Shown one piece after another: positions 14,794-39,945 of a DNA stretch of 58,576 bases. Both the position numbers and the translations under genes were made by a program. Source of the stretch: Rhodothermales bacterium. Lineage in GTDB: Bacteria; Bacteroidota; Rhodothermia; Rhodothermales; JANQRZ01. The notes beneath the pieces were generated by a model, which ran no database searches, was not told the DNA's origin, and saw only the letters and a program-made list of their open reading frames with translations. The stretch is from contig JBBSMX010000006.1 of the NCBI GenBank assembly GCA_038232935.1, positions 1-58,576 on the forward strand, in the 5' to 3' direction. Numbering within the stretch: the first letter of the stretch is position 1; every line of letters begins with the position of its first letter.

Positions 14794-16569
14794 TTACCAC
14801 TGCACGCGGAGGCCGGCCAACACGGTCGCCGGGGGGCGCGGGTAGCCGGGCCACTGCTCGGCGCGACCCGCGAGGCGCTCGGCGCGCAGGAGCGCCCCGA
14901 AGCCGGGCACGAACAGGTAGTGGGCTTCGGCGTCGAGCGTGGCCCATGCGGCGGCGTCCTCGCCGTCGGTTTCCGTCGGGCGGGTGCTCTCGGCGGTGCC
15001 GGTGGCCTGCACGAGGCCGCGCCCGTCTGCGAACGGCATCGCCACCGACAGCCGGCCGACGACGGGCGCAAAATAAGGGATATCCCCGCCGTCGTTACCG
15101 AGCGAGCCGGAGCGGGCCTCGGCCCCGAGCGTGAAACGGAGGCCGTTCGGGGCGTAGAGCGTAACCGTGCCGCCGCCGCGGATGACGGTGGCCTCGCCGT
15201 AGAGGGCGTCGTAGAGGCCGGCCGTGGTGCCGGTCGCCACGCGGTTGAAGTAGAGGGTGACCGGGCTGTAGCGCGCGCCGCCGTACACGGTGAAGCGGAC
15301 CGTCCGGCTCTGAATCTCCAGCCCGCCCTCGCCGTTGAGCACGTGGATATCGGGGGCTACGAACGGCTCGGGGACGGCGTACGGGTTCTCGCGGAACAGC
15401 CCGGCGAGGCCGCGGCGCTCCACCTCCGGCTCGTTCCGGATGAAGAGCAGCGTTGTGGGCGAGAGCGGCGCTTCGAAGACGACGACTGGGCCGACGTTCT
15501 GGCTGGAGCCGCCGCCGTTGAGCGCGGAGGCGTCGTACCCGAGGAAGCGCGCGCCCACGTCGAGCAGGCCGCCGCCGACCTGCAGGCGCAGCGTGCCGCC
15601 CGCGCTGTACGCCTTCAGACTCTCCCCGATGCCTTCGTCGCCGAGCCCGGACAGTGCCCCAGCCGCGTCGGCGCGGACGCGGTCGATCTGTACGTGGCCG
15701 CCCGCCTCGAACCGCGTCTCCGCCTGGTTGAACTGGTCGAAAAAGCCCTCCGGCAGAACGACGTCGGGCGTGCCGTCAGGTAAGACGATGGCGTAGTCGG
15801 TCGATGCGAAGCGCGCGTCCACGCCAAAGGGTACCCGGTCCGGTGCGTCGGAGGTGACGGAGATGCCGCCGCCCACCGTCCGGCCCCTTCGATTCGGCTG
15901 TGGGGCGAGTATGGTGGGGAAGTCGGTACCGATGAGCCGGTAGCGCTGGTAGTCGCCGCCGAGATCGAAGCCGAAGCGGGTGGGGCCGGGCGTGGTGTAG
16001 GCGATCCGCCCGTCGAGCACGTCGGAGCGTGCGTCGAAGTCCTCGTCGTCCGCGAACGGCTGGAAGCTGGAGAAGCCCGAGTAGTTGGCGTCCACACCCA
16101 ATCCGCCGGCGCTGAGGGTGAACCGCCCGAGCCGGCTGAGGTAGCGCCCGAAGCCGGCGTCGATCCGGCCCGTCAGCGGCGAGAGCGTGGCGATGTCGGG
16201 CGGCGCGGGCTCTGCGAGCGGGTCGGCCGGGAGGTCGTCAATGTTCTGCGCGTAGGGGGCGACGTAGGTCTGCCGGCTGCCGGGGACGACGTAGGTGCGC
16301 GGCGGCGGGGCGAACCCGCGCAGCGGCTGGCGCTCGAGGTTGGGGAGGGAGATCTGGAGGTCGCCGCGGATCTCGAACGCGCGCGGCGTGAGGTCCGGCA
16401 GCCGCTCCGCGCCCGGCTGCGCGAGGGCGGCGGTGGGGAGGAGGAAGAGGAGGAGAGCGGATAGAAGAGGGAGGGTAGAGGATGAACGATAGCAACCCAT
16501 TCTCCATCGTCCGTTCTCCATCGGCCATCCTCTCTCGCGTCCGTTCATCTGGTTTCCGGATGTCTGCAT
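14794..16569 (-). CDS. Outer-membrane beta-barrel protein (TonB-dependent receptor-like)
   Basis: Signal peptide LLSALLLFLLPTAALAQ; amphipathic strands; C-terminal GLRVQW; start overlaps upstream stop (TAATG); in TPR-ExbBD operon. Confidence 0.7.
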   Translation of the reverse strand: MQTSGNQMNGRERGWPMENGRWRMGCYRSSSTLPLLSALLLFLLPTAALAQPGAERLPDLTPRAFEIRGDLQISLPNLERQPLRGFAPPPRTYVVPGSRQTYVAPYAQNIDDLPADPLAEPAPPDIATLSPLTGRIDAGFGRYLSRLGRFTLSAGGLGVDANYSGFSSFQPFADDEDFDARSDVLDGRIAYTTPGPTRFGFDLGGDYQRYRLIGTDFPTILAPQPNRRGRTVGGGISVTSDAPDRVPFGVDARFASTDYAIVLPDGTPDVVLPEGFFDQFNQAETRFEAGGHVQIDRVRADAAGALSGLGDEGIGESLKAYSAGGTLRLQVGGGLLDVGARFLGYDASALNGGGSSQNVGPVVVFEAPLSPTTLLFIRNEPEVERRGLAGLFRENPYAVPEPFVAPDIHVLNGEGGLEIQSRTVRFTVYGGARYSPVTLYFNRVATGTTAGLYDALYGEATVIRGGGTVTLYAPNGLRFTLGAEARSGSLGNDGGDIPYFAPVVGRLSVAMPFADGRGLVQATGTAESTRPTETDGEDAAAWATLDAEAHYLFVPGFGALLRAERLAGRAEQWPGYPRPPATVLAGLRVQW

Positions 16570-19500
16570 TACCGTTCGCGTTGGGCCGTAGCGGCGGCGG
16601 GGGTGTCGGGGTAGGCGGCGATCACGCGCTGGTAGGCTTCGTCGGCGCGGCCGGACTCGCCGAGGCGGCGGAAGGCGCGGGCGCGGACGAGGAGCGCATC
16701 GGCCACTTCTTCGGGGTAACCGGCGAAGCGGTTCTCCACGTCGAGTCGGTCGAGGGCGGCGAGGACGCCCTGCATATCGCCCTGCGCGAAGAGGGCTTCG
16801 GCGAGGCGGACGACGGCTTCGGCCCCCGCCGCGTCTGTGTTGGTGGCGGCGAGGTCGCGGTAGAACTCCACCGCGTCGTCAGCGCGGCCCTGGGCTTCGA
16901 GTGCACGGGCGAGACCGAGCCCGGCCCGGTCGGCGAGGGGTGTGTTCGGCACCGACTCGATCACCGCCCCGAAGAGCGCTTCAGCGTCCGTGACGCGGCC
17001 GAGCCCGAGGAGCGTTTCGGCCTCCCCGAGCCGGGCTTCGGCCCCGGCCTCCGGCGTGGCCGCCTCGTCGGCGAGCGAGCGGAAGAGTGTGAGGGCGTCG
17101 GCGTAGCGTTCCGCGTCGAGGTAGAGCGTGCCGAGGCGGGCGCTGGCCTCGGGCCGCACGCTCGCGTTCGGGTACCGCTCGATCACGCGCCGGAGGAACG
17201 GCTCGGCTTCGCGCGGCTGGCCGAGATCGGCGTAGGCGCGGCCGACGTAGAGGTTCGCCGCCGCGATCAGGGCGTCGTCCTGCGCCGTGCGGATGAAGCT
17301 CTGAAAGGCCGTGATGGCCTCGCGGAGGTTCCCGCTCTGGAACGCCCCCTCGGCCTGCCGGAAGCGCAGCTCGTCGAGCACCGCCGCGTCGGGGTTCTGC
17401 TCGGCATATTGCTGCACGATCTCGTCGAGCTGGTACTCATCGCCCTGGGCGGTGAGGGAATATTGGACGCCCGAGAGCGCGTCCACGACGAACGGGCTGT
17501 TCGGGTAGCGGTCGAGCACGGCGCGGTAGGCGGCGGTGGCCTCGCGGAGCTTACCCTGGTTGTAGAGCGCGTCGCCGATGCCGTACTGCGCCTTCGGCGC
17601 GAGCGGCGAGCCGGGGTACCGATCGAGTACGACGCGGTAGTCCGCAATCGCACGGTCGTAGTTGCCCTGCTGGAAGGCGAGTGCGCCCTTCGCGTACTGC
17701 GCCTGCGCCCGCAGTGACGATTCCGGATACTGGCTCAGCAGGCGGTCGTAGGCGGCGACGGCCTGGGCAGCGCGGCCCGCATTCCCGTGGGCCTGGCCGA
17801 TCTGGAAGAGGGCGTAGTCCGCGCCGCCGACCGTCGTGTCCTCGATCCGCTGGTACGTGACAATCGCGTCGTCGAAGCGCTTGAGGGCGAAGTAGGCGTC
17901 GGCGAGGCGGAGGCGGGCGTCGGTGGTGTAGGGGACGATCTCGCTGCCGGGGCGGTACGAGGCGAGGAAGCGCTCGAAGGCCGTGGCGGCGCGGGCGTAG
18001 TCGCCGCGCTTGAAGAGGGTCCACGCGAGGGCGTAGCGGGCGGCGTCCTGCTGGCGGTGATCGGGGAATTTTTGCAGGAAGTCGGCGAAGAGGGTTTCGG
18101 CACGCTGGAGGGCGGCGGCGTTGCCGGCCTGTCCTTCCTGAAACGAGGCCTCGGCCGCCCAGAACAACGTCTCGCCCGCGCGTGGGCCGCTCGGGTTGCG
18201 CTGGAAGATCCGCTGAAGCTGGCTGGCCGCCTCGGCGTACTGGCCCGCGAGGTAGAGGTTGTAGCCCTGCTGGAAGGCTACCTCGCCGCTCAGTTCGGCC
18301 GAAGCGGTGCCGAGCGCTTCGGCCCGCTCGTTCGCGCGCTGCGCCTTCCGGTAGTCGCCGAGCGCGGCGTAGGTCTCGCCGAGCATCCGCGCGGCCTCAC
18401 CGGCGAAGGCGGAGGTCGGGTAGCGCTCGAGCAGCTGGTCGAACGACTGGGCGGCCTCGTCCCACCGGCGGACGCCGTAGAGCAGGACCCCGCGCTCGAA
18501 GAGGGCCGCGTCCGCGAACGGGCTCTCCGGCCGGCGGAGGTGGACGGCTTCGAGCCGCCGCGCTGCCTCGTCGATCTGCCCGAGCCGTTTGAGCGCGAGC
18601 CCTTCGTAGTACGTCGCCTCGGCGGCGAGGTCGTCGAAATCGGTTTCGGGCCACTGCCGGACGGCGCTGTAGTTGTCTGCTGCGTTAGTCCAGTTCTCCT
18701 GCTCCCACGCGATGCGTGCCTGCCCGAAGCGGGCGCGGCGGGCGTAAAGGCCGGTGGCGTCGATCTGCGCGAAGTACGCCTCGGCCTCAGTCAGCCGGTC
18801 GAGGCGGAGGGCGGCTTCGCCGAGGAGGAAGAGGGCGCGGTCGCGGGTCGGGCCGGAGAGGTCGGGGAGGCGGCGCTCGCCCTCGGTGATGGCGCGGTCG
18901 TACTGCCCGGTGCGGAGGTACGCGTCGGTGAGGGCGAGGCCGACGCGGCGGTCCTCGGGCGTCCGGCTGTAGCGGGAGGCGAGTTGACCGAAGGCGTCGG
19001 CGGCCTCGGCGTAGCGGCCCCGCTCGAACTCGGCGAAGCCGACGGCATAGAGCGCCTGCGGCGCGGCGAGGGAGCGGGGATACTCGGCGGAGACGCGGCC
19101 GAGGTAGGCGAGGGCAGCGTCGGGGCGGTCCTGCCGGAGGGAGGTCTGGCCCATGAGCAGGAGCGCGCGGGCGGCGTCTTCGGGCGGCTGCTCCTCTTCG
19201 AGCGCTTCGGAGAGCGCGTCGAGCGCCCGGTCGTACTGCTCGGTGGCGAAGTAGTACTCGCCGAGGGCGAGGCGGGCGCGGGGCGCGAGCGGATGCGCCG
19301 GGTAGCGGGCGCGGAAATCGGCGAGGAGCTGGGCTGCGGTCGCGTCGTCGCCTACGGCGAGGGCGGCCTCGCCGCCGTAGAACAGGGCGTCGGGGGTGAG
19401 CGGGTCGTTCGGGTACGCGGCGCGAAAGGTGGCGAACGCGCGCTCGGCCTCCCCGAACAGGCGGGCGTCGAAGAGGGCGTACGCGTCGGCGAAGGCGATC

Positions 19501-35477: not shown

Positions 35478-36860
35478 TCACCCGCCGAACTCCTCCGCCA
35501 TCGCATCGAGCTCGTCGTGCATCCCCCCGACGATTGCCGTGGGATCGGGGACCATGCGGGCGTCCGTAGCGATACCGAGGAGCACCTCGTCGGCGTAGCT
35601 GATGATGCTGACGCCGAGGCCGATGTCCCCTGCGCGCGGGACCCAGAACATGATGCGGTTGATCGGGTTGCCGAGGAAGTGGAGCTGCTCTCGCGGCCCT
35701 GGCACGTTCGTCATCACCGCCGAGACCTTCGAGCTGAGGATGTCCACGACCTGCTGGTGCATCATCTCCGGCCCGGCCCCGATGGCCTGAATGATGGCGA
35801 ACGCGACGCCGGGCTCGGCCGAGCTTTTGATCTCGTCCATCCGCTGCTTGATTTCGAGCAGGCGCTCCCGCGCGTCGACGATGCCGACGGGGAGGGAGAG
35901 GAACGCGAGCCCGAACACGTTGCCGAGGTCAAACGCCCGTTCGAGGGGCCGGAGGTTGACAGGGATGGCGGCTCGTATCTCGACCCCTGCCGTCGACTCG
36001 CCGTGGGCGTCGAGGTAGCGGCGGAGGCCGCCCGCCACGGCAGCGAGCAGCACGTCGTTCACCTTCGCCCCGCTGCCGCGCCCGATCTTTTTCACGCGGT
36101 CGAGGGGGATCGGCTGGGACCACGCGGCGCGCTTCATCACGCCGGCCGGCGCTTTGAACCGCGTCTCGGAGTCGCTCGCCATGAGGGCGATCTTGCTGGC
36201 GGCAGCGCCAATGCTCATGCCCTGCTTGGCCCAATCGAGGGCTTTGCCGGGATGCTGGATCAAGTCGAAGCCGCCGGTGACGACGGAGCCCGCCGCCCGC
36301 CCTACCTGATTCACCGCCTTGCCGACGGGTTTGAGGAAGCGGCCCACGAGGCTCCGCTCGGACGGGTCGTGGCCGTAGCTCGGGGTCGCCCGCGTCGGGT
36401 CGAACACCTCATCGGCGAGGGAGATGAGGACGTGGATGAGCGCGATCCCGTCGCCGATGCAGTGGTGGAGCCGGCCGACGAGGGCGCTCCCCCCGTCGAA
36501 GTGCTCGATGAGGTGGAACTGCCACGGTGGCTTCGAGAAGTCGAGCGGCGTGCTCATTAGGTCGCTGACGAGCTCTTCGAGCGAGGACTTCTTGTCCGGC
36601 ACGGCGAGGCCGACACGGTAGACGTGCGCGTCGATGTCGAAGTGCGGGTCGGTCTTCCACGTCGGTGTCCCGTTCGGGTAGACGACCCGCTGCCGGAAGC
36701 GCTCGAAGATCAGCAGCCGCTCCTCGATGAGTTGCTTGAGGTCGTCTAGGTCCATCGGTCGGTCGAACCCGATGACCCCGACGATCGTCATCGGGTTGAC
36801 GGAGGACTCCATGCGGAGCCAGGCTACGTCGGCCGCGCCGAGCTTTTGGGTCGTCGCCAT
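35478..36860 (-). CDS. Wax ester synthase/diacylglycerol acyltransferase (WS/DGAT)
   Basis: HHCIGDG catalytic motif, KVNDVLLA, PVNLR, TNVPGP. Confidence 0.93.
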   Translation of the reverse strand: MATTQKLGAADVAWLRMESSVNPMTIVGVIGFDRPMDLDDLKQLIEERLLIFERFRQRVVYPNGTPTWKTDPHFDIDAHVYRVGLAVPDKKSSLEELVSDLMSTPLDFSKPPWQFHLIEHFDGGSALVGRLHHCIGDGIALIHVLISLADEVFDPTRATPSYGHDPSERSLVGRFLKPVGKAVNQVGRAAGSVVTGGFDLIQHPGKALDWAKQGMSIGAAASKIALMASDSETRFKAPAGVMKRAAWSQPIPLDRVKKIGRGSGAKVNDVLLAAVAGGLRRYLDAHGESTAGVEIRAAIPVNLRPLERAFDLGNVFGLAFLSLPVGIVDARERLLEIKQRMDEIKSSAEPGVAFAIIQAIGAGPEMMHQQVVDILSSKVSAVMTNVPGPREQLHFLGNPINRIMFWVPRAGDIGLGVSIISYADEVLLGIATDARMVPDPTAIVGGMHDELDAMAEEFGG

Positions 36861-37278
36861 AGGAGTAGAGAAGGAATCGGTGGGAACGAGAAGGTAGGGG
36901 CAACCGCGAGAAGTAAGCACCGGCGTAGAGCGCGCTCCGCGTGAATCAAGGCGGGTGCTTGAGCCACGCTGGAAAGTAGCCGGGAATCGGTGAGTTGATT
37001 CCGTTATTGTATTATGAATAATAGGAGCCTGAATGCATAGAAATGGCCCGGATAGCCGGTTATCTGTTATTGGTATAGAGCACAGGGTTGTTCTCCGTGA
37101 TCCGGCACCCTATCTTCCGATCACCTCATGCCGCCGGAGACGGAGCCCTCGTTAGAACGTGCTCCGCCAGTCGCGTCACTGAAAAGCCTGGCCTCCGAGT
37201 CGGGCTTTTCGGTCCCAGGGCGACACGCAGCAAAGGATGGCGGCAGCCGGAGTCCGGATCGAGAGGTGGAGGAGCGAT

Positions 37279-37310
37279 TGTGGATAACGATCTCGATATC
37301 TTGTGTATAA
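37279..37310. promoter_or_regulatory. Two tandem DnaA boxes
   Basis: TGTGGATAA (37279-37287) and TGTGTATAA (37302-37310), both reverse complements of the TTWTNCACA consensus. Confidence 0.6.
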
Positions 37311-37327
37311 CTCGGGGCAAGATGTCC

Positions 37328-37355
37328 TTGACTTCACACGGACTTCGCGTTTAAT
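37328..37355 (+). promoter_or_regulatory. Putative sigma70-type promoter (TTGACT-16nt-TTTAAT)
   Basis: Hexamers read directly, immediately 5' of the structured region. Confidence 0.5.
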
Positions 37356-37360
37356 TGAGC

Positions 37361-37950
37361 GTAGTGCTTTCGGGCACAAACGTTCCTTGACGCGACTGAA
37401 GTTCTCCAGGCTGCATGAGGTCGCCGGCATGGTCCGGCGAGGACACGGAGCAGCTCAGATTCCCGGCCTCCCCCTCCTCGCAAGAGGACGGCATGGTTCG
37501 GGTGCGCTGAGTGAGCGCCAGGTAAGCCCACCGTTTCGAGTAGCCCGGTCCAACCGGGCGGAAGAGATGCGTGGCAGATGTCTCGCCGAAGTGACTCGTT
37601 CACACCCACGTCGGAGAAAATGTGTCTGGGCGGTCGTTGATCGACTGTTGTGCATTAGCACGACGGACGGTTAATAACACCACAGTTCGACTCCGTCGTT
37701 CTAAGCGTGTACCGCAGCACGCAGAACCACGTCCTCGGGACAGCGATGTCCTAGGCCGTGTCGTTCGGTGCAAGAACCAGCCTGCCACTCTATCCCGTAT
37801 TGCCCGGGTGAGGCCTGACGGCCAACACGCTCGGATCGACACGGTCACGACGACCTTCGGGTCGAAGCGAGGCCTTTGGGGCCGACGGAGGAAGGGCTGT
37901 CGCGTCAGGAACCCTTTTGACGGGCCGGTGCCTCGGGTACCGGCCCGTCA
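37361..37950 (+). ncRNA. Candidate large structured non-coding RNA (~590 nt), family not recognised
   Basis: No credible ORF; closing helix 37382-37396/37899-37912; nested helices; UUCG and GCAA tetraloop hairpins; upstream promoter-like element; 15-bp terminal hairpin 37918-37950. Confidence 0.6.
37918..37950 (+). terminator. Long terminal hairpin (putative terminator or 3' stabiliser)
   Basis: tgacgggccggtgcc-tcg-ggtaccggcccgtca followed by ctattt. Confidence 0.6.
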
Positions 37951-38166
37951 CTATTTGAGGTCTGCACGATCTGTGTTTGGTTCGAGGAGAAGCAGTGCTG
38001 CGCGGCCGTCGGTCGGGCATCGGGAGCGGGTGACCGCGCCGGGCGCGTTCCGGCCTACGTCGGAAGATCTGCAGGAAGTCTGGTGAACTCCGACGGCATC
38101 GAGTGAGACGCAACCCGGCCCGGTCCGTATCTTCAGCGCCACCCACTTCCCCTCTCTGTGCCCAAC

Positions 38167-38487
38167 ATGGCGCTCGCACGCGAAGGCTTTCTCATCATCG
38201 CTGGTTTTCTGGCGCTCGCGGCGCTCTGCGTCCTCGCCGGACTCTGGCTCGGCGGCGTGGCCGGGGTTGTGCTCATCGCCATCGGGCTCGTGTCGCTCGG
38301 GTTCTCCCGCGATCCCAAGCGGTTCCTGCACGAGGGTGCCAATGCGCTCATGCTCTCGCCCGTCCTGTTCAAGCAGATCGCGGGCACCGTCGCGCACCGG
38401 GAGACGGTGGTCGGCCACATCCCGGAGAGCCGACTCGGCGGGGCAGCGGCCTCGGCTCACTTGGCCGTACCTGACCCCCAGAGCTGA
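38167..38487 (+). pseudogene. psd: Internally deleted phosphatidylserine decarboxylase remnant
   Basis: MALAREG..TM..FSRDPKR....MLSP joined directly to VLFKQIAGTVAHR then ETVVG; these blocks are far apart in ~220 aa Psd proenzymes; FGS cleavage motif absent; coupled to pssA. Confidence 0.7.
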
Positions 38488-39305
38488 TGGTCGAGCCCAA
38501 GTCCGTCGCCAGCAAACGCCGTCGCCGCCGGGTCCGCCGCCGGCCCCGGATCTCGCGCGTGGCCGTCCCGTCGTTCTTCACCCTGATGAACCTGCTCAGC
38601 GGATTCTTCGCCGTCATCAGCACGGCCGAAGGCGAGTTCGAGAAGGCAGCGTGGCTGATCGTTGCGGCCGGCCTCTTCGATGCGCTCGACGGGATGATGG
38701 CACGGATCGCGAACGCCGTGAGCATGTTCGGTGTCGAGCTCGACTCGCTCGCCGATGTGGTCTCGTTCGGCGTAGCCCCGGCGTTCCTCCTCTACGAGTT
38801 CGGGCTGGACCGGCTCGGCCTGTTCGGCGTGATCATCGCCTCGCTGCCCGCGCTGTGCGGGGCCGTGCGGCTGGCCCGCTTCAACGTCGAGTTCGAGGGC
38901 GAGAAGAAGCCGTACTTCTCCGGGCTCCCGATCCCGGTCCAGGCCACGTTCGTCGTCGCCTTCATCCTCGTCTTCCACGACGGCCGGTGGTTCGAGGGCT
39001 TCGAGTGGGGCCGCGCCTCGATCCTGATCCCGATGGTCGTCGTGCTCTCGGTGCTGATGGTGTCGACGGTCCCGTTCGACGCGCTCCCGACGCCGACGCC
39101 GCGCTACCTCCGCGCCCACCCGAAAAAGGCCCTCGCCCTCCTGATCGCGATCGTGCTCGTGGTGACACTCCAAGAGGTCGGCCTCTTTATCACGCTCGCG
39201 GCGTACCTCGCCTACGGGATCGGCCGCGCCCTTCGCTGGGCGTTCCGAACCGCCTATGAGGAAGACGACGAGGACGCGCCGGAATCCGCCCTATCCGAAG
39301 CCTGA
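38487..39305 (+). CDS. pssA: CDP-diacylglycerol--serine O-phosphatidyltransferase
   Basis: FTLMNL..GF, DALDG..AR......FG.ELDSLAD.VSFG.AP, RLARFN, FSGLPIP. Confidence 0.92.
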   Translation: MVEPKSVASKRRRRRVRRRPRISRVAVPSFFTLMNLLSGFFAVISTAEGEFEKAAWLIVAAGLFDALDGMMARIANAVSMFGVELDSLADVVSFGVAPAFLLYEFGLDRLGLFGVIIASLPALCGAVRLARFNVEFEGEKKPYFSGLPIPVQATFVVAFILVFHDGRWFEGFEWGRASILIPMVVVLSVLMVSTVPFDALPTPTPRYLRAHPKKALALLIAIVLVVTLQEVGLFITLAAYLAYGIGRALRWAFRTAYEEDDEDAPESALSEA

Positions 39306-39319
39306 CGCCTCCGACTGCC

Positions 39320-39583
39320 ATGTTCAAAGCCACCATCCGCATCACCCTCCGCCCCTCGATTCTCGACCCGCAGGGCAAGGCGATCCACCACGCTCTCCAC
39401 AGCCTCGGCTATCCCGCCGTGGACGACGTGCGGGCGGGCAAACTCGTGGAGCTGTGGATCGACACCGACGACCGCGCGGAGGCGGAGCGCATCGCCCGAG
39501 AGGCGAGCCAGAAGCTGCTCGCGAACGGGGTCATGGAGGACTTCTCCGTCGAGGTCGAGCCGCTGGCTACGGCGGCGGCGTGA
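39320..39583 (+). CDS. purS: Phosphoribosylformylglycinamidine synthase subunit PurS
   Basis: ILDPQG, VRAGK, KLLAN.VME. Confidence 0.93.
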   Translation: MFKATIRITLRPSILDPQGKAIHHALHSLGYPAVDDVRAGKLVELWIDTDDRAEAERIAREASQKLLANGVMEDFSVEVEPLATAAA

Positions 39584-39945
39584 TGGGGATACCGCACCGA
39601 CTCCGCCGCGCCGTGGCGTCTCCTGTGGACGGATGGCCTCTCGCCGGACCCGCTGCGCCGGTGCCCGCCGCGCCGGAGGTGGATGTGGAGGTGCTCGACG
39701 AGACGGAGGAGCGGATCGCCACGCCGTGGCGGGTGATCCTCTACAACGACGAGATCCACACGTTCGAGGAGGTCATCTTCCAGGTCATGAAGGCCACCGG
39801 CTGTTCCGTCGAGCAGGCCGAGGCGCATGCATGGGCGGTCCACACGGAGGGCAAGGACCGTGTCTACGAGGGCGAGTTCGAAGACTGCTTCCGCGTGCAG
39901 GGCATCCTCCGCGAGATCGGGCTCGTCACGGAGATCGAGGGCTAG
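39583..39945 (+). CDS. clpS: ATP-dependent Clp protease adaptor ClpS family
   Basis: WRVILYNDEIHTFEEVI...VHTEG; TGATG overlap with purS. Confidence 0.85.
   Translation: MGIPHRLRRAVASPVDGWPLAGPAAPVPAAPEVDVEVLDETEERIATPWRVILYNDEIHTFEEVIFQVMKATGCSVEQAEAHAWAVHTEGKDRVYEGEFEDCFRVQGILREIGLVTEIEG

Follow-up and report, generated by a model that had tools for sequence, protein, structure and literature searches.

The window analyzed here, the whole 58,576-nucleotide stretch of contig JBBSMX010000006.1 (assembly GCA_038232935.1) from a Rhodothermales bacterium, contains a large RNA gene, L, at positions 37361-37950 of the plus strand, with its body at 37382-37912. Upstream of it and on the same strand lies a predicted small RNA gene, S (approximately 37123-37210, +), whose product is complementary to L. 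A preliminary description, made from the sequence alone, had interpreted the larger segment as a structured plus-strand RNA that has a promoter, a closing helix and a terminator of its own. Each of its coordinates was correct when checked against the sequence, and the interpretation is borne out by the fold, by homologues and by covariation: L is a genuine gene for a large structured RNA that had not been described before. The locus is situated inside a 1.2-kb intergenic gap, between a wax-ester-synthase gene (35478-36920, -) and a series of plus-strand genes starting at 38158 that includes one for a CDP-alcohol phosphatidyltransferase (38487-39305).

A conserved, structured and non-coding RNA gene

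The plus strand of L has a minimum free energy (MFE) of -283.5 kcal/mol, compared with -241.4 ± 6.3 for dinucleotide shuffles (z -6.68, with 0/100 shuffles as good), and thus folds better than shuffled sequence; the fold of the minus strand is weaker (z -4.57). The segment is not coding. A Pfam search of the open reading frames (ORFs) in the 590-nt segment gave no match, and seven comparisons with relatives revealed no codon periodicity of substitutions (p 0.29-1.0), which speaks against the decayed coding sequence that had been considered as an alternative. Just 1/6 and 2/11 of the indels in L are multiples of three. No ORF of at least 15 codons is common to all members of either of two family alignments; the best clusters of stop columns comprise 6/8 and 8/11 sequences, with differing lengths, starts and peptides, none of them hydrophobic.

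No known RNA family accounts for L. At the gathering threshold, none of the 4227 models of Rfam 15 matched anywhere in the window, nor was a family found for the 18 homologous loci. At E ≤ 10 the window gave three weak matches, two on the terminator hairpin and one outside L, and the 18 loci gave nine scattered weak matches, none recurrent at L or S. ARAGORN found nothing in the window, and the Rfam scans of the window detected no rRNA homology of L. RNase P RNA (RF00010, contig C111, 228.6 bits) and transfer-messenger RNA (tmRNA; RF00023, contig C90, 163.6 bits) are encoded elsewhere in the same genome, in agreement with the preliminary description, which had seen no signature of either in the segment. 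The 6S RNA models RF00013 and RF01685 gave no match in the window's genome; the second was found in no control genome and is uninformative. In the genome G017, which also carries L and S, we observed a rod-shaped 188-nt 6S-like candidate (G017:C107:9191-9378, equivalent to L112:1501-1688) that scores 36 bits, below the RF00013 cut-off. It is the only one among 31 Rhodothermales genomes, and BLAST found no homologue of it in the window's genome.

L is a conserved single-copy gene of one order, the Rhodothermales. It occurs once in the window's genome and was found by BLAST in 26 of 41 related genomes, over its full length at 66-78% identity within the same family and as a stretch of about 40 nt at the 5′ end, at 81-95% identity, in other families of the order. 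An exact scan for the 5′ motif across 185,579 species genomes returned 71 records. Most of these are labelled Rhodothermales, Rhodothermia, Rhodothermaceae, Bacteroidota or Bacteroidetes; the remainder are several entries named 'uncultured bacterium' or 'bacterium', one Flavobacteriia metagenome-assembled genome and one cultured organism, Roseithermus sacchariphilus. R1, a covariance model of the first 68 nt of L, matched 87 of 151 sampled Rhodothermales genomes, always once in each, and 0/139 Bacteroidota genomes outside the order in a phylum-wide sample. Families f3, f4, f21 and f26 gave no R1 match, and f10, f24 and f27 gave few; the families that carry the module include f1, f5, f6, f17, f18, f20 and f22. 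Plasmid, phage and viral collections contained no match to L. The absence of an Rfam match and the restriction of the homologues to one order agree with the suggestion that L may represent an undescribed class.

Removal of duplicates left 78 distinct L loci. Six of them lacked a 3′ end that could be located and were set aside; the remaining 72 sequences range from 339 to 1184 nt in length. Across this order-wide set the homologues share a covarying outer architecture. The closing helix P1 comprises 14-15 bp, and its 5′ strand (GUUCCUUGACGCGAC, GTTCCTTGACGCGAC) is present in 71/72 sequences. The 3′ strand is found, as judged by eye, just 5′ of a hairpin and T-run in most loci. Its variants (GUCGCGUCAAGGAAC, CUCGUGUCGGGAGC and others) keep G-U pairs on the plus strand only, and the plus strand is therefore the transcribed one, as the preliminary description had argued from G-U pairs. 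Directly after P1 comes helix P2, in which, across the order, GAGUCUC pairs with a GAGACUC located some 65-76 nt before the 3′ end. Compensatory versions occur by lineage (AAACUCU/AGAGUUU, UCUUAC/GUAAGA, GAGAG/CUCUC, GUCUUU/AAAGAC and, in the window, GUUCU/AGAAC). Comparing cognate with cross-locus P2 strands was of little use (helix length 6.5 versus 5.2), a weak contrast, with a core common to most sequences. P3, inserted between the 3′ strands of P2 and P1, is in most other families a shorter CCUCCC...GGGAGG hairpin, and the three helices together form a three-way junction.

The interiors differ greatly among families, yet they are dense in stable tetraloop hairpins: CUUCGG occurs in 61/72 L interiors versus 4/72 shuffled ones, CGAAAG in 41 versus 15, and CGCAAG in 39 versus 10. 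RNAalifold predicted 138 pairs for the window's family (eight sequences), 35 of them with double changes, and 136 pairs for a second group (11 sequences, about 700 nt), 59 of them with double changes. A distal hairpin loop, UGCCCAU, was identified in 51/72 sequences at 115-310 nt (mostly 150-200) from the 3′ end; it is absent in the window's family.

The helices listed in the preliminary description were scored as cells with standard pairs in a MAFFT alignment of eight sequences of the same family, and the counts depend on that alignment. The ends of the segment pair as described, the closing helix forming in 111/112 cells. Hairpin 37421-40 is paired in 54/56 cells and hairpin 37543-59 in 51/56, with compensatory changes in the latter; hairpins 37630-48 and 37475-88 follow with 42/56 and 28/40. 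The helix 37656-67/37692-703 reached 72/96 cells, with RNAalifold favouring local hairpins there, and the helix 37754-63/37837-46 reached 44/80; hairpins 37504-18 and 37851-64 are paired in 18/40 and 23/40 cells. These comparisons indicate that the outer architecture and several of the hairpins are real. The two inner helices 37656-67/37692-703 and 37754-63/37837-46, together with hairpins 37504-18 and 37851-64, appear weak or unsupported; of the inner helices proposed earlier, two or three lack support.

Transcription of L is suggested by metatranscriptome contigs of close relatives from four runs in four studies (saline spring, marine, soil and seawater), which together cover 37343-37953. 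Depths reach about 20-1288 in three of these runs, compared with about 2-6 in the remaining one. The window's own sequence was in no RNA run. Two of the contigs stop at 37910 and 37912, at the end of the P1 3′ strand. No contig covers the bins 37250-37327 and 37978-38000; as these flanks show little conservation and the contigs belong to relatives, the cover is silent on the transcript ends. Taken together, this is moderate evidence that the L family is transcribed and abundant.

A small partner RNA and its complementarity to L

The S element was identified in 66 loci, 200-470 nt upstream of P1 (mostly 215-330) and on the same strand, with a median length of 98 nt. It shows the features of a small RNA gene: a -10 hexamer, block A (ACCUCAUGCCGCCUGGA), a variable hairpin, block B (CUCAGUCGCGU), block C (UAUGGGCAC), an A-rich stretch and a terminator. 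In most loci a TATCTT-like -10 hexamer lies 6-7 nt 5′ of the conserved ACCUCAUG, which would mark the start of the transcript, and in an alignment of 44 sequences the terminator stem covaries. R2, the covariance model of S, matched the window at 37122-37210 (51.7 bits) and, by hand count, gave full-length matches of at least 35 bits in 74/151 genomes of the order. In Roseithermus sacchariphilus MEBiC09517 the two genes are found at about 193.4-193.7 kb of CP030158, with predicted lengths of ~92 nt for S and ~760 nt for L. Many weak R2 matches span only model positions 60-99 and are terminators. Likewise, the f3 matches (7/7 genomes, 26-34 bits) were rejected as S, the one that was inspected (G011) being the terminator of a protein gene.

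In all cases compared bar three, the R2 match lies 100-360 nt upstream of the R1 match on the same strand. One exception is explained by a contig that ends just after S (G053); the other two belong to f15 (G023 and G044) and are weighed below. In f15 the L-like gene beside S lacks the GUUCCUUGACGCGAC start, and in G023 a different contig, without an adjacent S, bears a second L-like 5′ region that is closer to the canonical form (loci L160:1734-1785 and L162:1202-1278 in G023, L161:874-927 in G044). A search for the Hfq domain PF17209 was negative in all 151 genomes of the order, with the control positive in 5/14 genomes; long complementarity probably takes the place of a chaperone.

The three blocks of S are complementary to the three most conserved segments of L, with which they are predicted to pair. 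The partner of block A is YYRGGCUGCAUGAGGU (the GGCUGCAUGAGGU region). Seven central positions can pair in 63-66/66 loci, three more in 63-66/66 and two more in 54-60/66; one conserved mismatch position forms a pair in just 14/66. In five loci a G-C pair is replaced by A-U through changes on both sides. Duplex energies for block A contrast weakly between cognate and non-cognate partners (-26.1 versus -24.9), the core being common to most sequences. It is therefore the variant lineages that carry the argument.

The predicted partner of block B, L nt 10-20 (CGCGACUGAG), overlaps P1 and P2. Nucleotides 11-17 of L can pair with block B in 66-67/67 loci, and double changes were recorded at nt 19 (eight loci), nt 20 (nine), nt 18 (two) and nt 16 (one). 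Coordinated changes join L GGACUGCAUGAGAG with S CUCUCAUGCAGUCU in L024, GAGAU with AUCUC in L023, GGCUACAUGAGGCC with GCCUCAUGUUGUC in L061, and AUGGAG with CUCCGU in L022. Block C, AUGGGCA, is complementary to the distal loop UGCCCAU of L. Compensation is found here as well (AUGAGCA/UGCUCAU in L093 and CUGGGCA/UGCCCAG in L085), and, as judged from the locus tables, block and loop are jointly missing in 13 loci, namely those of the window's family plus L010, L013, L032, L045 and L091. We had also considered that the 5′ UGGGC of L might form an intramolecular helix with the GCCCA of the internal loop. This was dropped, since UGCCCAU is retained in the loop even in sequences whose 5′ part reads UAGGC; pairing with block C explains the loop better.

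When eight S-L pairs were folded together with RNAcofold, blocks A (14-17 bp) and B (11-14 bp) were paired in the MFE heterodimer in 8/8 cases. The net gain was -4.0 to -19.6 kcal/mol, against 0 to -2.5 with shuffled S. For the window, the MFE heterodimer pairs S 47-57 with L 7-17 and S 2-19 with L 22-40 (17 pairs). In the eight predicted heterodimers L nt 7-15 are paired with S and not with the 3′ end of L, so that P1 is displaced. Overall S would cover L nt ~7-20 and 22-40, a stretch that includes the beginning of P2 and the inner half of P1. The core of block B (..CAGUCGCGUCA..) is the same as that of the 3′ strand of L (GUCGCGUC, ..GUCGCGUCAGGAAC), and S binding and closure of P1/P2 are therefore predicted to be mutually exclusive. 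The S model also matches the reverse complement of the L 5′ region; S thus resembles an inverted copy of that region. Since both the intramolecular and the intermolecular helices carry compensatory changes, both the S-bound and the closed state appear to be under selection. Coordinates of the features of both genes are listed in Table 1.

Table 1. Positions of the L and S features in the window
Feature	Position	Strand	Basis or remark
Putative promoter of S: TTGTTC (37088-37093), 17-nt spacer, TATCTT (37111-37116)	37088-37116	+	Sequence
S, ~88 nt in the window (predicted)	37123-37210	+	66 loci, covariance model, complementarity to L
S block A, ACCUCAUGCCGCCGGAG	37123-37139	+	Complementary to L
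S variable hairpin	~37140-37166	+	
S block B, CAGUCGCGUCAC	37168-37179	+	Complementary to L
S intrinsic terminator	~37183-37210	+	Stem covaries
DnaA-box match, exact, TGTGGATAA	37279-37287	+	Upstream of the L -35
DnaA-box match, one mismatch, TGTGTATAA	37302-37310	+	23 bp from the first box
Promoter of L	TTGACT 37328-37333; TTTAAT 37350-37355 (16-nt spacer) or TTAATT 37351-37356 (17-nt)	+	Sequence; relatives
5′ hairpin P0, GUGCU-UUCG-GGCAC (GUGCUUUCGGGCAC in the window)	37364-37377	+	At or next to the predicted start
P1 5′ strand, gttccttgacgcgac / GUUCCUUGACGCGAC	37382-37396	+	Almost invariant across the order
L site for S block B (UGACGCGACUG), predicted	37388-37398	+	Overlaps the inner half of P1
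P2 5′ strand, GUUCU	37401-37405	+	Pairs with AGAAC; RNAalifold 20-24 with 544-548, 8/8 paired
L site for S block A (UCUCCAGGCUGCAUGAGGU, including invariant GCAUGAGG), predicted	37403-37421	+	Pair table, 66 loci
Interior of L, variable, hairpin-rich	37422-37772	+	RNAalifold, window's family
P2 3′ strand, AGAAC	37773-37777	+	RNAalifold
P3 domain, AGCCU (37779-37783) / GGGCU (37894-37898)	37779-37898	+	Between the 3′ strands of P2 and P1
P1 3′ strand, gtcgcgtcaggaac / GUCGCGUCAGGAAC	37899-37912	+	Pairs with 37382-37396
Terminator hairpin of L, 15 bp	37920-37950	+	U-run weak in the window, clear in relatives

In the window's family, L is neighboured by the wax-ester synthase and CDP-alcohol phosphatidyltransferase genes. 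Over the 78 loci a rhomboid gene lies upstream in 42 and a HAD hydrolase gene downstream in 33. Synteny gave no clue to function. By eye, the ORFs at 39320-39583 and 39256-39945 of the window resemble purS and clpS, and in relatives a purQ-like GATase_5 gene is found near the module, a loose linkage to purine genes. Upstream of S, in the low-GC part of the gap, there is a promoter-like TTGATT-16-AATAAT (36995-37022, +). The sequence CCGTTATTG occurs in the window at 37001-37009 and 37065-73. In most other loci it precedes the S start by about 40 nt, and in most families it sits immediately 5′ of the S -35 region; five members of the window's family have a TGTGGATAA DnaA box in its place.

Promoter region and 5′ end of L

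The promoter-like TTGACT/TTTAAT noted in the preliminary description is matched in relatives: at the homologous place they have a near-consensus TTGACA-17-TATAAT, and the hairpin CAGUGCCUGACGGCAC comes 6-7 nt further on. A consensus promoter scan of the window did not list the L promoter, as its -10 fails the rule of the scan. The 15-bp hairpin that had been described directly downstream corresponds to the terminator hairpin of L. P0 is kept as CAGUGCCUGACGGCAC in 52 loci, with the P1 motif directly after it.

Predicted DnaA boxes flank the L promoter and are enriched at a conserved position. Using the consensus TTATCCACA with at most one mismatch, we counted 109 matches in the 200 nt before L over 77-78 loci, 67 of them at -200..-101 and 42 at -100..-1; the other 100-nt bins hold 0-3 matches, bar the -400 bin with 10. 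A box lies between S and the L promoter in 58/66 loci. The whole genome contains 13 exact boxes, and the two predicted sites in the window are centred about 58 and 81 nt before the predicted L start, where DnaA may bind.

Boxes of this kind raise the question of an origin of replication (oriC). The locus has two boxes only, and the GC skew is equal on either side of L (0.0138 and 0.0147). On contig C53 of the same genome (G000 C53:19580-20000), an intergenic region holds at least six boxes at ≤1 mismatch, with more visible by eye, followed by a stretch of 44% GC. This region is likely the oriC of the genome; dnaA itself is on contig C25, with two boxes upstream. Because the skew is unchanged, the boxes are two, and the typical box cluster with its AT-rich element is on C53, the L locus was rejected as an origin.

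L nt 1-9 (GUUCCUUGA) are invariant and nt 1-6 are outside the S coverage. Pairing alone does not explain this invariance, because the P1 partner strand of nt 1-9 varies. Pairing of the invariant 5′ part with 16S rRNA was also tried and rejected, the duplex energy (-41.1) being equal to the shuffle mean (-41.1 ± 3.1). The start of L resembles the BoxA elements of the genome's own rRNA operon (rrn), which read UGUUCUUUGAGAG in the leader and GUUCUUUGACA / GUUCUUUGAC in the 16S-23S spacer: L GUUCCUUGAC is identical to the spacer BoxA at 9/10 positions. The motif follows directly on the promoter-proximal hairpin P0 (52 loci) and precedes a long untranslated transcript. Position 5 is C, not U, in every L gene; an Aquifex BoxA also has C at this position. 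L nt 1-10 are thus a putative BoxA-type Nus-factor site, possible rather than probable and only a lead, which would suit an untranslated RNA of 340-1180 nt. The BoxA consensus GYTCTTTAANA is gamma-proteobacterial, and BoxA is used beyond rRNA, according to the part of PMC5725501 that was available.

In the rRNA operon of the same genome (G000 C85, reverse strand, 15900-18200), we observed a TTGACA-17-TAATTT promoter, a hairpin, the BoxA UGUUCUUUGAGAG and a 21-bp stem formed with the post-16S spacer; a second BoxA, GUUCUUUGACA, precedes the 23S gene. The likeness between L and an rrn leader extends to a strong promoter, a promoter-proximal hairpin, a BoxA-like motif, a long untranslated transcript, and ends that form a long duplex resembling an RNase III processing stalk. 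The two differ in that the rrn BoxA lies just outside the processing stem, whereas the BoxA-like strand of L is inside the closing helix, has C at position 5 and, as a 9-mer, occurs in the genome at chance frequency.

Interpretation of the two-RNA module

We consider it moderately probable that L and S act together as a two-RNA module linked to DnaA, S being the dedicated antisense partner, or the switch, of L. In this model L would be strongly expressed, with P1 continuing into P2 and P3 inserted to give the three-way junction. S, transcribed from its own promoter to its intrinsic terminator and acting without Hfq, would offer single-stranded blocks to L and would open its closing helices or hold them open, thereby serving as a switch on the folding, processing or stability of L. 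Transcription of L under two predicted DnaA boxes would tie the module to the replication-initiation status of the cell, and a BoxA in the first ten nt might protect the long untranslated transcript from Rho. The direction of regulation, the binding of DnaA and of NusB/E, and any effector function of L are what we infer in this scheme. The description of L as a "free-standing" RNA is to be qualified accordingly: it has its own gene, and the upstream partner that accompanies it and is predicted to pair with it speaks against functional independence.

Several points weigh against this reading. Most of the paired positions are invariant, the covariation comes from a minority of lineages, and related sequences are non-independent. 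The covariation of P1/P2 and of the S pairing fits a switch and equally a stable complex with partial helices, and the cofold model ignores pseudoknots, proteins and co-transcriptional folding. In f15 (G023 and G044) the L copy adjacent to S is diverged at its 5′ end, and S and the best L match are on different contigs. The contigs from RNA libraries belong to relatives, may include DNA and cannot show ends; the transcript ends, the expression of S and S-L binding are all predictions. For the regulatory part, 8/66 loci, including cultured Roseithermus, have no DnaA box at ≤1 mismatch, and the genome contains 23 copies of the BoxA-like 9-mer GTTC[TC]TTGA, where chance alone would give about 22. 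Finally, 64/151 genomes of the order have no L match, including all of f3, f4 and f26, and f21 has only weak R2 matches; because of these 64 genomes, the module is dispensable.

Beyond the switch, L could be the working RNA of a new kind of machine, be it catalytic, protein-scaffolding or RNA-only, with S gating its active fold, DnaA licensing its synthesis and an rRNA-type BoxA making its transcription processive. We regard this extension as rather unlikely; if true, it would describe a replication-coupled two-RNA switch without a described bacterial counterpart.

The same complementarity could serve assembly. S might be a permanent subunit or folding chaperone of L in a two-piece RNA machine, holding the L 5′ strand until the 3′ strand is made or staying in the active complex. 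U3 snoRNA on pre-rRNA and tscA in split group II introns are analogies. In its favour, S is never found without a nearby L (the apparent exception, G053, being a contig end), L explains all three conserved single-stranded blocks of S, and the L 3′ strand is made 340-1180 nt after the 5′ strand, leaving time for S to bind. The BoxA-like site close to the promoter is also reminiscent of rRNA, whose transcription complex acts as a folding chaperone as well, as stated in the part of PMC6614801 available to us. P1 and P2 are nevertheless selected over their full length, the S-covered nucleotides included, so that a closed state free of S would matter too, and no catalytic or protein-binding motif was recognised in L. 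We consider this explanation unlikely.

S is also built like a trans-acting small RNA (sRNA), with a seed at the 5′ end, single-stranded blocks and a terminator, and L is complementary to it at multiple sites; S could then be an effector with mRNA targets elsewhere, which L titrates as a decoy or sponge. None of the sampled genomes yielded S in the absence of L, and block-A sites with ≤2 mismatches number 252 in the genome against 449 for a reversed control, which is a weak test. A sponge, moreover, needs neither a covarying architecture of 340-1180 nt, nor a DnaA-box promoter, nor the invariant nt 1-9 that S leaves untouched. This makes the sponge improbable.

Far less credible is a system like type I toxin-antitoxin, with L as a structured toxin mRNA, S as the antitoxin sRNA and a stress operator between them. 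The layout of the genes fits: S, complementary to the 5′ region of L, covers an invariant AUG, L has a 5′-3′ closing helix, and a transcription-factor site lies between the genes, recalling the 5′-3′ fold-back of hok and the LexA box at tisB/istR. With no conserved ORF of at least 15 codons, no hydrophobic peptide, no codon periodicity and an interior full of indels and tetraloop hairpins, L hardly looks like a toxin message.

It is just as improbable that L is a lineage-specific RNA of the 6S or Ms1 type that binds RNA polymerase. Its strong promoter and paired ends, and the finding that no 6S scored above cut-off in 31 Rhodothermales relatives or in the window's genome, would agree with this, but the silence of RF00013 says little, as the model also misses 9/14 control genomes. 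L, at 340-1184 nt and with a three-way junction, is not a rod of ~180 nt with a central bubble, and in G017 a separate 6S-like candidate exists beside L and S. The last explanation, that L is not its own RNA gene (but a leader of the downstream lipid genes, a decayed coding sequence, a piece of an origin or a ColE1-like pre-primer), takes its appeal from the long intergenic gap, the DnaA boxes and a small RNA complementary to the 5′ end of an RNA of ~550 nt, as in RNA I/RNA II, and is already largely refuted by the terminator after L in most loci, downstream genes that vary by family, the lack of a Pfam match and of periodicity, the flat GC skew (0.0138 versus 0.0147), the oriC-like cluster on C53, the absence of plasmid, phage and viral matches, and a single copy with partly conserved synteny.

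Among known systems, the antisense pairs ColE1 RNA I/RNA II, hok/sok and tisB/IstR-1 are among the closest to L and S. As in these, an RNA of ~90 nt would pair with a far longer structured RNA in its 5′ part, pairing could plausibly begin with loop contacts, binding would compete with a 5′-3′ closing helix, and a transcription-factor site is adjacent. Unlike these, S is encoded in trans on the same strand without overlapping L, and L has no conserved ORF and no downstream origin and is not on plasmids; the predicted pairing, in addition, uses three blocks that bracket the P2 of L itself. In the same way, the L promoter resembles the promoters of dnaA and other regulon members in having one to three TTATCCACA-type boxes at fixed positions, and differs from them in that its product is a large non-coding RNA (ncRNA).

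The ornate ncRNA classes OLE, ROOL, GOLLD and raiA are in Rfam. L is like them in its hundreds of nucleotides, its many covarying helices and its multistem junction. It also shares with them few invariant nucleotides, a restricted taxonomy and the lack of a coding signal (available parts of PMC12286853 and PMC5737381). Unlike these classes, L has no Rfam match at E ≤ 10 within its body, either in the window or in the 18 loci; L itself is chromosomal, single-copy, not linked to phages or tRNAs, and varies three-fold in length. To our knowledge, a dedicated partner sRNA and DnaA boxes have been reported for none of the ornate RNA classes. We also know of no described counterpart to a large covarying RNA without a family that is combined with a three-block partner sRNA and DnaA boxes. 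The combination appears to be new, while its parts (antisense pairing, DnaA-box promoters and possibly BoxA) are individually familiar.

The literature search, covering the accessible text of the sources, found no description of L, of such ncRNAs in Rhodothermales or of a large ncRNA controlled by DnaA boxes; motif lists in supplements could bear on this. Term searches within the accessible text of PMC11109978, PMC8632094 and PMC5737381 found no mention of L. The closest idea, from the part of PMC8959179 that was available, concerns CcnA, a cell-cycle ncRNA from Caulobacter with links to CtrA and GcrA.

Of the Rhodothermales genomes sampled, over half carry the module, that of the cultured Roseithermus sacchariphilus among them. 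The families to which the classic model species probably belong gave no sign of it, and this may be why it has been overlooked. Large, highly structured bacterial RNAs are rare, and every class so far has opened new biology. L and S offer experimental handles in the pairing blocks of S, which can be mutated and compensated, and in the conformational switch predicted at the closing helices; the DnaA boxes suggest a link to the replication cycle, and there is a possible Nus-factor site on a non-ribosomal RNA. If the switch is true, S would be the first sRNA known to serve an ornate RNA as its dedicated regulator or subunit, and the module would represent an Hfq-independent RNA-RNA recognition system in Bacteroidota.

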